IMG/VR virus record: IMGVR_UViG_3300027754_005988
Location: 62,970 to 126,969 of that record
Source of the DNA: a virus
Length of the DNA: 64,000 nucleotides
Reading direction: 5' to 3' (one strand)
Shown here: positions 57,612 through 63,371 of the stretch, piece by piece
Layout: the number at the start of each line of letters is the position of its first letter
How positions within the stretch are numbered: the stretch's first letter is position 1
The notes under the pieces: generated by a model
Seen by the model: the letters and a program-made list of their open reading frames with translations, nothing else
The model's database searches: none
Told to the model about the DNA's origin: nothing
Made by a program: the position numbers and the translations under genes

Positions 57612-58067
57612 ATGGCAAAATACGAAGAAGTATTCGAAGACACACAAGATTTGTACACTAGATTAATCAACGAAGCTAGTTTAAATCATGTTAACATTAC
57701 AATCTTAGCTGATAATAAAGCTAAAGAAATTTATAAACTTAATAAAGCTAATGCATTATTAAAGTTCAGAAGTGGTGATGATATCATTATAGTTTTAAAT
57801 GAAAAGATTTTTGAAAAACTAACACAAGAGCAACAAGTTATCATTGCTGAAGAATCATTGGCTGGTATTAGTTATGATGGTGAAAATGATAAAATTGAAC
57901 TTAAAAAACCAGACTTTACTGCTTACACTGGTATTTTGCGTAAGTATAATTATGAAACTGTTGATACTTTAAGAGAATCAATTATATCATTGTATCAAGC
58001 TGAAAAACAAGCTGAAGATGAAGCTAAAAATGCAAATACACCAAAAACAAAAAAACAATATTCATAA
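57612..58067 (+). CDS. Phage putative-metallopeptidase-family protein with degenerate active site
   Basis: IFEKLTQEQQVIIA-EESLAG...PDF...GILRKY resembles W..L..EQ..AL.DHEL.H...PHD...IV.RY, but the His ligands are absent. Confidence 0.5.
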   Translation: MAKYEEVFEDTQDLYTRLINEASLNHVNITILADNKAKEIYKLNKANALLKFRSGDDIIIVLNEKIFEKLTQEQQVIIAEESLAGISYDGENDKIELKKPDFTAYTGILRKYNYETVDTLRESIISLYQAEKQAEDEAKNANTPKTKKQYS

Positions 58068-58369
58068 TGACTAGAGAAGATGCAGAAGAATTAATAAGTG
58101 AGTTAAATCCAGAAGCGTTATTTCTAGATGGTTTCGATGATGCTATATTAGGTATAGCCGAAAGACCTAATTTAGGTCCAGTGGTGGCTTATGATGAAGA
58201 AAAGATAATAGCCATTCTTGTAGAACAAATGGAACCAGACTCTGAAGATTTAATTGATAGAGATGTTTTTGAACTTAAAATGGAAATGGCTCTGGATTAT
58301 TATCATTATAACATCAAAAACGCATGGGTTGGTGAATATACACCAATGATTATAACAACAAATATTTAA
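58067..58369 (+). CDS. Conserved-looking phage hypothetical protein (100 aa)
   Basis: ALFLDGFDDAILG...VAYDEEKI...YNIKNAWVGEYTP; TAATG-coupled. Confidence 0.75.
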   Translation: MTREDAEELISELNPEALFLDGFDDAILGIAERPNLGPVVAYDEEKIIAILVEQMEPDSEDLIDRDVFELKMEMALDYYHYNIKNAWVGEYTPMIITTNI

Positions 58370-59124: not shown

Positions 59125-59540
59125 AGGTGGCTAATCAAAACTAAAAAAAAGAAAGGAAAATAAAATGGAAACAATGATAATAGTATCAGTTTTAACTACT
59201 CTATGTGTTGGTGCAATAATTGCTTCACTTGTGATTGCGTATATGAAGTTAGATAGAAAAGTTGATGTTACAGAATATGATAATAATATTCTTGATGTTC
59301 GTAGAAGAATTAATGAAGAGTCAAAAATGATATTTGACCTAATAGATGCTAATGTTAGAAGCTTAAATTCAGACATTGAAGCTCTACATAGAAGAATTGA
59401 TGAAGCAAAAAATCAACAAGATAAAATAGGTGAAGAGTTAAGAAGCCTTATTGATTCTAGATGTGATAAATTGGATAATAAAATAAAAAAGAGTGGTAAA
59501 ACATTACTTAATGATTAATAAAAAATAAGGTTAGCCACCT
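59125..59540. repeat. Long-range inverted repeat flanking ORF 59165-59518
   Basis: AGGTGGCTAA(TC) at 59125-59136 versus (GG)TTAGCCACCT at 59529-59540, followed by TTTT. Confidence 0.75.
59165..59518 (+). CDS. Membrane-anchored coiled-coil protein (117 aa)
   Basis: N-terminal TM IIVSVLTTLCVGAIIASLVIAY, then heptad repeats. Confidence 0.75.
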   Translation: METMIIVSVLTTLCVGAIIASLVIAYMKLDRKVDVTEYDNNILDVRRRINEESKMIFDLIDANVRSLNSDIEALHRRIDEAKNQQDKIGEELRSLIDSRCDKLDNKIKKSGKTLLND

Positions 59541-59564: not shown

Positions 59565-59595
59565 CTTGCTTTTTATTAAAACTATAGTATATTTG
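59565..59595 (+). promoter_or_regulatory. Bacteroidota-type early promoter of the tmRNA
   Basis: CTTG-N19-TATATTTG, 25 nt upstream of the predicted mature 5' end. Confidence 0.8.
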
Positions 59596-59620
59596 TATAA
59601 TAAAAGTTCTTTAAAATTCT

Positions 59621-59977
59621 GGGAATGCCAAGGTATTGATTAGGTATAGTCGTAAATGGTAAGCATGTAGTGCTAGATTGGAAGCACTTAAATCTGTCTA
59701 TTAAACAATTGAATTGACAACGATTTCATCGTATCAGAAAATTTCCTTAACGAGTGCAGCATGTCTGTAATCGAGGGAGAGGTAGCAGCTGCCTAACAAC
59801 TGTAAATGGTGGTAATCCACTAAATGATGGTATCCCATCAATGGTAGTAATCTACTAGTGGGGCCAAAACCACTATAAAAGTAAGGAAGCTTTCGGATAG
59901 TTATAAAACTATGACCTAAACATGTAGAAGGCTATTGAAGAATATTTAAGACAGGAGTTCGAGTCTCCTCATTTCCA
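59621..59977 (+). ncRNA. ssrA: tmRNA (transfer-messenger RNA)
   Basis: Acceptor stem GGGAATG/CATTTCC-A with G3.U70; T arm AGGAG-TTCGAGT-CTCCT; pk1 GTGCT/AGCAC + AGATT/AATCT; CTAAACATGTAG; tag ORF 59716-59796 ending GCA GCT GCC TAA. CCA not encoded. Confidence 0.93.
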
Positions 59978-60067
59978 CAGTGAATGTTTTGTGCTTTGTT
60001 GATATTTATAGAGTACAAAATTCTTTACAGATTCTTCCCAACAATCACCTTATGGGATAGAAATTAT

Positions 60068-60102
60068 AACCTCTAGTAAGTCGCTTTACTAGAGGTTTTT
60101 TT
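60068..60102 (+). terminator. Intrinsic terminator downstream of the tmRNA
   Basis: AACCTCTAGTAAG-TCGC-TTTACTAGAGGTT-TTTTT. Confidence 0.85.
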
Positions 60103-61792: not shown

Positions 61793-62209
61793 ATGACAGT
61801 AACAGAAAACAGTAATGTTAAAGTACATTACACAGGTAGATTAGAAGACAATACAATTTTTGATTCATCAGAAAATAAAGAACCATTATCCGTTGAATTG
61901 GGTAAAGGTGTATTAATTCCTGGTTTTGAAAAAGGGTTACAAGGTTTAAGTGTTGGTGAAAAAAGAACAGTAACCATACCAGCAGAGGAAGCTTATGGGC
62001 CAGTTAGAGTAGAAATGATTCAAGAAGTTGAAAAGAAATTTGTACCAGAAACAGTTGAAGTAGGTCAACAATTAACAGCTCAAGGACCACAAGGTCAAAT
62101 GGTTGTTGTTGTAACTGAAGTTAAAGAAGAATCAGTTGTTTTGGACGCTAATCACCCATTAGCTGGAAAAGCTTTAATATTTGACTTAGAAGTAGTTGAA
62201 ATAGCTTAA
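61793..62209 (+). CDS. FKBP-type peptidyl-prolyl isomerase (SlyD/FkpB-like, with IF domain)
   Basis: VKVHYTGRLEDNTIFDSS, LIPGFEKGL, IPAEEAYG, LDANHPLAGKALIFD. Confidence 0.95.
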   Translation: MTVTENSNVKVHYTGRLEDNTIFDSSENKEPLSVELGKGVLIPGFEKGLQGLSVGEKRTVTIPAEEAYGPVRVEMIQEVEKKFVPETVEVGQQLTAQGPQGQMVVVVTEVKEESVVLDANHPLAGKALIFDLEVVEIA

Positions 62210-62738: not shown

Positions 62739-63371
62739 ATGCGTAAATTTGATAAAAAGATTAATTTAGCTAGAATTAATATATTAGCCGAACAAAGATA
62801 CTTAGAATCCAAAGGAATAATCAAAGAAACTATTGAAGAAGAATATTTCGATTCACGTAAACCAGTTGAAGATTATGTTGATGCTGAAGAATTAGTTGGA
62901 AAACTTTATTGGTTCCATACTAACAGAACACATAGAAACCATGGTAAAAACGGTATGGTTGGTATTTACAGTGTTGGTAAAAATGGTGAAAGGGGTGAAG
63001 CTTTAAAAATGTATACCAACGAAGTTAGAATTAAATCACCTATTTATTTTCAAACTAGTGAAAGTGGTTCTAAACGAATAAGAAACACAAAAGAAAAAGA
63101 TGGAGGTGCTGGTACTAGAACATTGGTTGCTGGTGTATCTGGTGTTGTTGCCCCTACTGATAGTGGTAACACTAGTGGTATGGAATTAGCTAATTTTAAC
63201 CCATTTGATGCAAATGCACCATGGTTTTATTTAAACAATGATAGTGAAAAGAAAGAAATAGTTTCAGCTGATGAAGTTTATTTTTATGCGACTGAAGAAG
63301 GACAATGGTTTTTCTACGTTAAAAATGCACAGTTTAGTGGTAAAAAAGGTTATGATGTAGAAACAAAATAA
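62739..63371 (+). CDS. Putative head-packaged cargo protein
   Basis: MRKFDKKINLARINILAEQRYLESKGIIKE leader followed by a globular domain. Confidence 0.6.
   Translation: MRKFDKKINLARINILAEQRYLESKGIIKETIEEEYFDSRKPVEDYVDAEELVGKLYWFHTNRTHRNHGKNGMVGIYSVGKNGERGEALKMYTNEVRIKSPIYFQTSESGSKRIRNTKEKDGGAGTRTLVAGVSGVVAPTDSGNTSGMELANFNPFDANAPWFYLNNDSEKKEIVSADEVYFYATEEGQWFFYVKNAQFSGKKGYDVETK

Follow-up and report, generated by a model that had tools for sequence, protein, structure and literature searches.

The last 64 kb of the IMG/VR virus record IMGVR_UViG_3300027754_005988, a record of 126,969 bases, carries a gene for a transfer-messenger RNA (tmRNA) with a tag of 26 codons. This whole stretch (64,000 nucleotides, record positions 62,970 to 126,969, G+C 28%) is referred to below as the window. 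Few degradation signals are as well understood as the tags of tmRNAs, which are almost all about 10 residues long. The comparisons described here show a phage-encoded, one-piece tmRNA that has the look of a working molecule and whose mRNA-like part is enlarged. The enlarged tag is shared by a large family of giant phages, which keep a tag of 25–26 codons beside a ClpP of their own and whose full genomes also encode a ClpC-type unfoldase and, in most cases, SmpB. The coordinates of all features are collected in Table 1.

Identity and structure of the tmRNA

The gene matches the Rfam model RF00023 over its full length and scores 70.2 bits, the gathering score being 47 (E 2.8e-25). The CCA terminus is not encoded, and the 3' end reads ...CCA-CAG. 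The first-pass annotation, made from the letters of the window before any database search, had proposed ARAGORN and Rfam as a check on the tmRNA; Rfam bears the gene out, whereas ARAGORN, run on the window, calls no tmRNA. The same program misses 40 of 72 family members, and among its 32 hits the resume codons are inconsistent and often late or wrong. Because ARAGORN misses or mis-frames so many of these genes, tmRNA catalogues built with it under-report and mis-report the long-tag phage genes, and the family is under-annotated in phage catalogues. A blastn comparison of the window tmRNA with GenBank phages gave no match.

The structure was examined in an alignment of 37 sequences, for the acceptor stem, helix 2, the two stems of pseudoknot 1 (PK1), the T arm, helix 5 and two elements inside the tag frame. 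The named tmRNA structure is paired in 90.1% of the alignment cells, versus 39–51% when the partners are slid by 1–3 columns. Both sides have changed at 30 of its 42 pairs, and none of 500 shuffles reached the observed values. The third acceptor pair is G:U in all 37 sequences, and this G3:U70 wobble is the identity element for alanine. Stem 1 of PK1 covaries and is 98% paired, and stem 2 is 79% paired. Helix 5, which holds the stop codon in its loop, is also recovered when divergent members of the family are folded as single sequences. The region of PK2–PK4 aligns poorly to the Rfam model; after helix 5, at positions 59804–59912 of the plus strand, small hairpins such as GGTGGTAATCCAC and GATGGTATCCCATC follow one another.

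Reading frame of the tag

Translation of the tag frame gives DNDFIVSENFLNECSMSVIEGEVAAA and then a stop, exactly as the first-pass annotation had claimed, and the frame lies inside the full-length Rfam match. The resume codon of the Rfam model aligns to GAC 59716. The A at position -4 relative to this codon (position 59712), which we take to be the counterpart of the frame-setting A86 in E. coli tmRNA, is invariant in the alignment, and an in-frame TGA (59710–59712) stands two codons 5' of the resume codon. In 55 of 55 distinct related tmRNAs, the frame homologous to the one from GAC 59716 is open for 25–26 codons; the other frames are open for at least 19 codons in few of the 55 (14 for the +1 frame, 2 for +2 and 12 for -5). 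The -5 frame is the one starting at GAA 59711, which had been offered as an alternative reading of the tag; open in only 12 of the 55 relatives, it is not conserved and we rejected it.

The first codon across the family is GAC, GGC, GGA or GCA, and conservation starts exactly there. Between the resume codon and helix 5 there are some 15 additional codons, which every relative keeps in frame. Judged by this conservation, the tag frame is no chance open reading frame (ORF), and the resume codon and the 26-codon length both have comparative backing in the frame shared by all relatives and in the invariant A at -4. With a stop codon in the helix 5 loop closing the frame of 26 codons, a rescued ribosome would add the Ala carried by the tmRNA plus 26 residues, 27 in all, which is the length of the M. 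pneumoniae tag.

Tags of the probable host phylum

The closest cellular ClpPs to that of the window (42–48% identity) all come from Bacteroidota, which is for this reason the probable host phylum of the phage; the genome matches with higher scores are phage-like contigs binned into assorted metagenome-assembled genomes (MAGs). We compared 55 Bacteroidota tmRNAs; 5 are from the genomes with the closest ClpPs, and the other 50 came from 151 sampled genomes of the phylum. Their tags, as called by ARAGORN, have 8–10 codons and end in LAA or MAA in 54 of the 55, and their Rfam scores are mostly 105–198 bits (one is 93), against 70 for the tmRNA of the window. The tag of the window is 2.5–3 times as long as these, in agreement with the earlier estimate of about 2.5 times the usual length. 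The first-pass annotation had named equally long tags in the host's own tmRNA as a finding that would count against its proposal; none occurs among the 55, which answers the point provided that the host belongs to Bacteroidota.

We note a Flavobacteriaceae MAG that has its own tmRNA (139 bits, tag GENNYALAA) together with a 248-kb phage-like contig, on which lies a 69-bit tmRNA with a 21-codon tag (L134, G006 contig C1 9285–9686; L132). The same contig carries a ClpP of 60% identity. This MAG provides a weak link to a host and an example of an intermediate tag length.

Peptide and RNA modules within the tag

The tag consists of three modules, an acidic and hydrophobic N-terminal block, a variable middle and a conserved C-terminal end. 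The family consensus is (D/G)N(D/E)(F/L)x(V/I)(S/D)ENFL(D/N)(E/T)A, followed by 6–7 variable residues and GE(V/L)A(V/L/F/A)A. Asn9 and Glu22 are kept in all 55 relatives, and residue 2 is Asn in 52 of them. The pooled ratio of nonsynonymous to synonymous change (pN/pS) is 0.36 for codons 1–13, 0.82 for codons 14–20 (the apical hairpin described below) and 0.51 for codons 21–26. Within the N-terminal block, Ser7 is kept through four synonymous codons (TCA, TCT, TCC and TCG), Asp/Asn12 and Glu13 vary synonymously, and the ENFL motif is nearly invariant, with only its TTCC paired in the RNA.

Two RNA elements lie within the same frame. The smaller one, hairpin A in codons 2–6, is predicted in the folds of divergent members; 76% of its cells are paired and both sides have changed at three of its five pairs. 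The larger one, stem-loop B, folds in 49 of 49 distinct family sequences (from codon 10 to codon n-4) and is made of a basal helix, 98.6% paired, and an apical hairpin of 5–9 pairs, whose sequences differ between subgroups and stay complementary. Its length is 36 or 39 nt, with insertions and deletions in threes that preserve the frame. Folded alone across the family, stem-loop B has a mean z of -2.44 relative to shuffles, and 47 of the 49 sequences are below -1; single-sequence folding of the whole tag region yields weak z-scores, from -0.3 to -2.1. Stem-loop B is the inserted piece that lengthens the tag. The extension is thus partly conserved peptide and partly conserved RNA structure, and with a covarying stem-loop in the middle of the tag, the length may also be explained at the level of the RNA.

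The C-terminal end lacks the (L/M)-A-A of a ClpXP-type degron: the tag of the window ends in A-A-A, and those of the family mostly in A-V-A, A-L-A or A-F-A. The first-pass annotation had read the A-A-A as keeping a ClpX-type degron. The three alanines are there, but they are the variant of this window in a family whose ends are A-(V/L/F)-A, and the unfoldase found in the relatives is of the ClpC type. As the family end differs from the (L/M)-A-A of the host phylum, a ClpX-type degron is an assumption.

Linkage to clpP in a family of related phages

With the ClpP protein as query, IMG/VR gave more than 599 matches, from among which 80 related loci were retrieved; their contigs are up to 380 kb long. 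A search with the window tmRNA found a homologue at 71 of the 80 loci, always on the strand of clpP and 63–1955 nt downstream of it (median 393). The tmRNA forms part of a conserved block, dnaJ-metallopeptidase-orf100-clpP-tmRNA, whose members are present at 66, 74, 66, 80 and 71 of the 80 loci, respectively. In addition, a strict DNA pattern of the tag-coding stretch matched 61 IMG/VR contigs, several of them outside the 80 loci. These comparisons of related sequences confirm that the long tag is a trait of the family and that the link to clpP, asserted earlier from the window only, is systematic. The closest deposited phage ClpPs belong to uncultured megaphages and Prevotella Lak phages; the two Mahaphage-like GenBank genomes with the closest deposited ClpP contain no tmRNA.

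Candidate partner proteins

Partner proteins were sought in four relatives of 306–380 kb (CheckV completeness 86–100%). SmpB is encoded in three of the four, and a ClpC-type two-ring Hsp100 in all four, in one case with an intein. Both full-length ClpC copies examined (G001 and G002) possess the Clp_N domain. The best PDB matches of the G001 unfoldase are ClpC proteins, aligned in one stretch over residues 24–827, whereas ClpB matches fall into two pieces; against S. aureus ClpC, its M-G-F aligns to the AGF of the ClpP-docking loop. The features expected of a ClpC–ClpP pair, namely Clp_N, a docking loop of the form (L/I/V/M)-G-(F/L) and the ClpP triad, are present in the relatives; the ClpC gene is one of the relatives and not of the record analysed here. 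In the relative of 362 kb (G003, L088:643–2304), an intein-splicing domain match precedes the second AAA+ ring, and the ORF comprises the D2 half only. A search of the four relatives with the AAA_2 profile gave only ClpC-type genes and no ClpX, and no Lon_C match was obtained in five phage records.

Between the metallopeptidase gene and clpP lies orf100, which could be a partner or adaptor of ClpP. Its AlphaFold model is confident (pLDDT 93.6), and its matches in the ESM Atlas are to unnamed viral clusters only.

Interpretation and alternative explanations

The explanation that we favour, with a probability that we put a little above even, is that the tmRNA serves ribosome rescue followed by Clp-type proteolysis with participation of the phage ClpP. 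The phage tmRNA would rescue ribosomes that stall during infection, for example on broken host mRNAs, and in full genomes it would work with the phage SmpB, although the SmpB of the host could serve as well. Clp-type proteolysis of the tagged fragments would follow, with the participation of the adjacent phage ClpP, which the ClpC-type unfoldase of the phage or an unfoldase of the host would drive. Recognition would have two parts, the hydrophobic end of the tag being the degron and the conserved N-terminal block a further element peculiar to this phage family.

Several observations weigh against this explanation. One relative that is 100% complete is without SmpB, and neither SmpB nor ClpC was found in the 127 kb of the present record (36% complete). 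In the complete relatives, the genes for ClpC, SmpB and the tmRNA are far apart and form no operon, and at 9 of the 80 related loci clpP has no tmRNA within 4 kb. No match to SspB (PF04386) or to ClpS was obtained in the five phage records, and orf100 has no fold match in the PDB (Foldseek best E 0.67, VIA-align best Z 4.7). The middle of the tag is constrained as RNA, by the stem-loop, and not as peptide (pN/pS 0.82). Furthermore, hairpin A overlaps the N-terminal block, and the RNA constraint may inflate the apparent conservation of the peptide.

The stronger proposal of the first-pass annotation was a private recognition code, and it has gained genomic support that is circumstantial; the idea is unproven. 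Its support comes from the linkage to clpP, from ClpC and SmpB in the full genomes, from the constrained N-terminal block and from a C-terminus unlike that of the host; on the other side, SspB, ClpS, ClpX and Lon were not found in the phage records searched. In its full form, in which the DNDFIVSENFL-type block and the A-(V/L/F)-A end are read as a phage-private degron by the phage ClpC–ClpP and not by the host system, we consider the proposal unlikely. Such a degron would perhaps be read through a phage-only partner such as orf100, the rescue-and-recycle pathway of the phage would be separate from that of the host, and the in-frame stem-loop would give the same insertion a further role at the level of the RNA. 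Should phage proteins be the readers of the tag, the infected cell would contain a natural second tag-and-degrade channel, with a bearing on phage takeover of translation, on the recycling of host protein and on the search for a source of orthogonal degrons.

The main alternative to a recognition function of the peptide is that the extra length is a feature of the RNA, related to folding, stability, processing or handling by the ribosome, with the residues as passengers. The frame would then be kept only because the stop codon lies downstream, and degradation would proceed as usual, through the hydrophobic C-terminus, by host ClpXP or another host protease. The universal stem-loop B, with its nearly fully paired basal helix and apical stems that are unrelated in sequence, fits this alternative, as do the nearly neutral middle peptide and the resemblance of the first four and last three residues to a host tag split in two (compare GENNYALAA and DNNYSYRLAA). 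However, codons 1–13 lie mostly outside stem-loop B and are nevertheless conserved as peptide; the synonymous variation at Ser7, Asp/Asn12 and Glu13 and the near-invariance of the largely unpaired ENFL point the same way, and the penultimate C-terminal residue is systematically unlike that of host tags. We regard the RNA-only alternative as somewhat unlikely, and note that a private code and an inserted RNA element can both hold.

Three further alternatives concern the start of the tag, its purpose and the origin of the gene. The tags that ARAGORN reports in relatives begin at Val6, Glu8, Glu13 or later, as would be expected if translation resumed downstream of GAC 59716 and the real tag were shorter; yet the same program starts at the first codon in 15 of its 32 hits, the Rfam model and the invariant A at -4 both indicate GAC, conservation (including the Asn at residue 2) begins at codon 1, and even a later in-frame start leaves 13–21 residues, which together make a later resume codon highly improbable. 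Hardly more probable, and in our view very unlikely, is a tmRNA that makes no degradation tag, acting either as a decoy that draws off the SmpB or EF-Tu of the host or as the source of a tag for sequestration or stabilisation. There is a precedent in the tmRNA of mycobacteriophage DS6A, which consists of the tRNA-like domain only and is reported to inhibit the host tmRNA (PMC4131195, PMC11915505), and the tag C-terminus is not of the host type. A decoy, however, has no need of an in-phase frame of 25–26 codons with its stop codon in the helix 5 loop, conserved in 55 of 55 relatives, and the end of the tag is alanine-rich and hydrophobic like known degrons, in a tmRNA that is linked to clpP. 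Finally, the record is classed as a provirus, ssrA is a classic integration site and the tmRNA is 4 kb from the end of the record, so that the gene might be the host's own ssrA at the edge of an integrated prophage. Yet the same gene is found deep inside phage contigs of 200–380 kb beside the same phage genes, the genes downstream of the tmRNA are also common to the phage relatives, the Rfam score is below those of Bacteroidota tmRNAs, and genes for phage replication and for the baseplate are present in the window. On the synteny and the low Rfam score we rejected this origin, which is scarcely credible.

The record and its neighbouring genes

IMG/VR classes the record as 'provirus', and CheckV puts its completeness at 36%; on that completeness the record is a piece of a phage of roughly 350 kb. 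Elsewhere in the window are genes for a DnaB-like helicase, a ribonucleotide reductase, baseplate wedge proteins and an SbcC-like nuclease. The order clpP, 117-aa ORF, tmRNA agrees with the earlier placing of clpP two genes upstream. The catalytic triad of ClpP is intact, with GMAASMG, MLHQV and DTNRD lining up with the catalytic motifs in the PDB alignment. The metallopeptidase gene and orf100 overlap where the first ends and the second begins, and orf100 stops 6 nt short of clpP. The 117-aa ORF matches nothing in Pfam or NCBIfam; its N-terminal segment is hydrophobic, and the rest is charged and coiled-coil-like. About 20 nt 5' of the tmRNA start are TATATTTG and TGTATAAT (59585–59600, plus strand); we take TATATTTG, as a candidate only, to resemble the Bacteroidota -7 promoter motif TAnnTTTG.

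Table 1. Features of the tmRNA region, in positions of the window
Feature	Position	Strand	Details
DnaJ co-chaperone, 334 aa	56532–57536	+	Pfam DnaJ, DnaJ_CXXCXGXG, DnaJ_C; in 66/80 related loci
Putative phage metallopeptidase, 151 aa	57612–58067	+	Pfam PF18894, 1.5e-09; in 74/80 related loci
orf100, conserved 100-aa ORF	58067–58369	+	phrog_13182 (function unknown); in 66/80 related loci
clpP, 238 aa	58376–59092	+	Pfam CLP_protease, 1.1e-56; NCBIfam ClpP; Ser-His-Asp motifs
Variable 117-aa ORF between clpP and tmRNA	59165–59518	+	Homologue at the same position in only 11/80 loci
One-piece tmRNA gene	59621–59980	+	Rfam RF00023, 70.2 bits, model positions 1–374
Acceptor stem	59621–59627 with 59970–59976	+	GGGAATG with CATTTCC; G3:U70 wobble; pairs 4–7 covary
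Pseudoknot PK1	59669–59695	+	Stem 1 59669–59674/59683–59688; stem 2 59675–59678/59692–59695
A at position -4 of the resume codon	59712	+	The same in all 37 sequences of the alignment (A92)
Tag frame, 26 codons	59716–59796	+	Resume codon GAC 59716; stop TAA 59794–59796
Small hairpin A, codons 2–6	59720–59732	+	ACGAT, TTC, ATCGT; predicted in folds of divergent members
Stem-loop B, tag codons 10–22	59743–59781	+	Basal helix TTCC/GGAG plus apical hairpin
Helix 5, stop codon in loop	59785–59803	+	GCAGCT, GCCTAAC, AACTGT; changes on both sides at 5/6 pairs
T arm	59953–59969	+	AGGAG, loop TTCGAGT, CTCCT; 100% of cells paired; compensatory changes at all 5 pairs
Terminator-like hairpin then T run, 3' of tmRNA	60068–60097	+	4 such sites in the region versus 0.4 expected
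FKBP prolyl isomerase	61793–62209		3' of the tmRNA

Comparison with known systems

Like canonical bacterial tmRNAs, the phage tmRNA has the G3:U70 acceptor, the T arm, helix 2, PK1 and the A at -4, a resume codon that starts with G, a stop codon in the helix 5 loop and a hydrophobic, alanine-rich tag end. It differs from the tmRNAs of Bacteroidota in the length of the tag (25–26 codons versus 8–10), in the stem-loop within the frame, in the A-(V/L/F)-A rather than (L/M)-A-A end, in its Rfam score (70 versus 105–198 bits) and in the position of the gene beside clpP on a phage.

The ssrA tag of E. coli combines an SspB site, AANDENY, with a ClpX site, LAA. The phage tag likewise has two conserved blocks, comparable to this two-part logic of an adaptor element and an unfoldase element, and its start, (D/G)ND..ENF, recalls the ANDENY of E. 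coli, a likeness of short motifs only. In contrast to E. coli, the phage blocks are about 10 residues apart, the residues between them being encoded by an RNA hairpin, and no SspB was found in the phage records searched.

Phage-borne tmRNAs are known from mycobacteriophages, among them the Bxz1 group, and from Bacillus phage G (PMC4131195), and huge phages carry tmRNA together with SmpB (PMC7162821). Phage G resembles the present family further in encoding a ClpP and an unfoldase, ClpX; its tag, however, has 13 residues (PMC12484599), as compared to 25–26 codons here. In the Lak-C1 megaphage, the tmRNA is not a neighbour of clpP, and its tag, at about 10 codons, is of ordinary length. Within the library searched, no paper turned up that deals with this phage family, with long phage tmRNA tags (a conserved tag of 25–26 codons included) or with a stem-loop inside the frame of the tag.

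In the current tmRNA database, the commonest tag length is 10 residues (PMC11915505). The 'unusual long' tag of M. pneumoniae, with 27 residues, is thought to have evolved for Lon (PMC8403727). The phage tag is like it in length, in the acidic and hydrophobic upstream part and in the hydrophobic end, a likeness of length and composition. The proteases differ: Mycoplasma is without ClpXP and uses Lon, whereas the phage family encodes ClpP and ClpC, with no Lon found in the four genomes. In Mycoplasma, the length of the tag accompanies a change of its reader, a switch of protease (PMC8403727).
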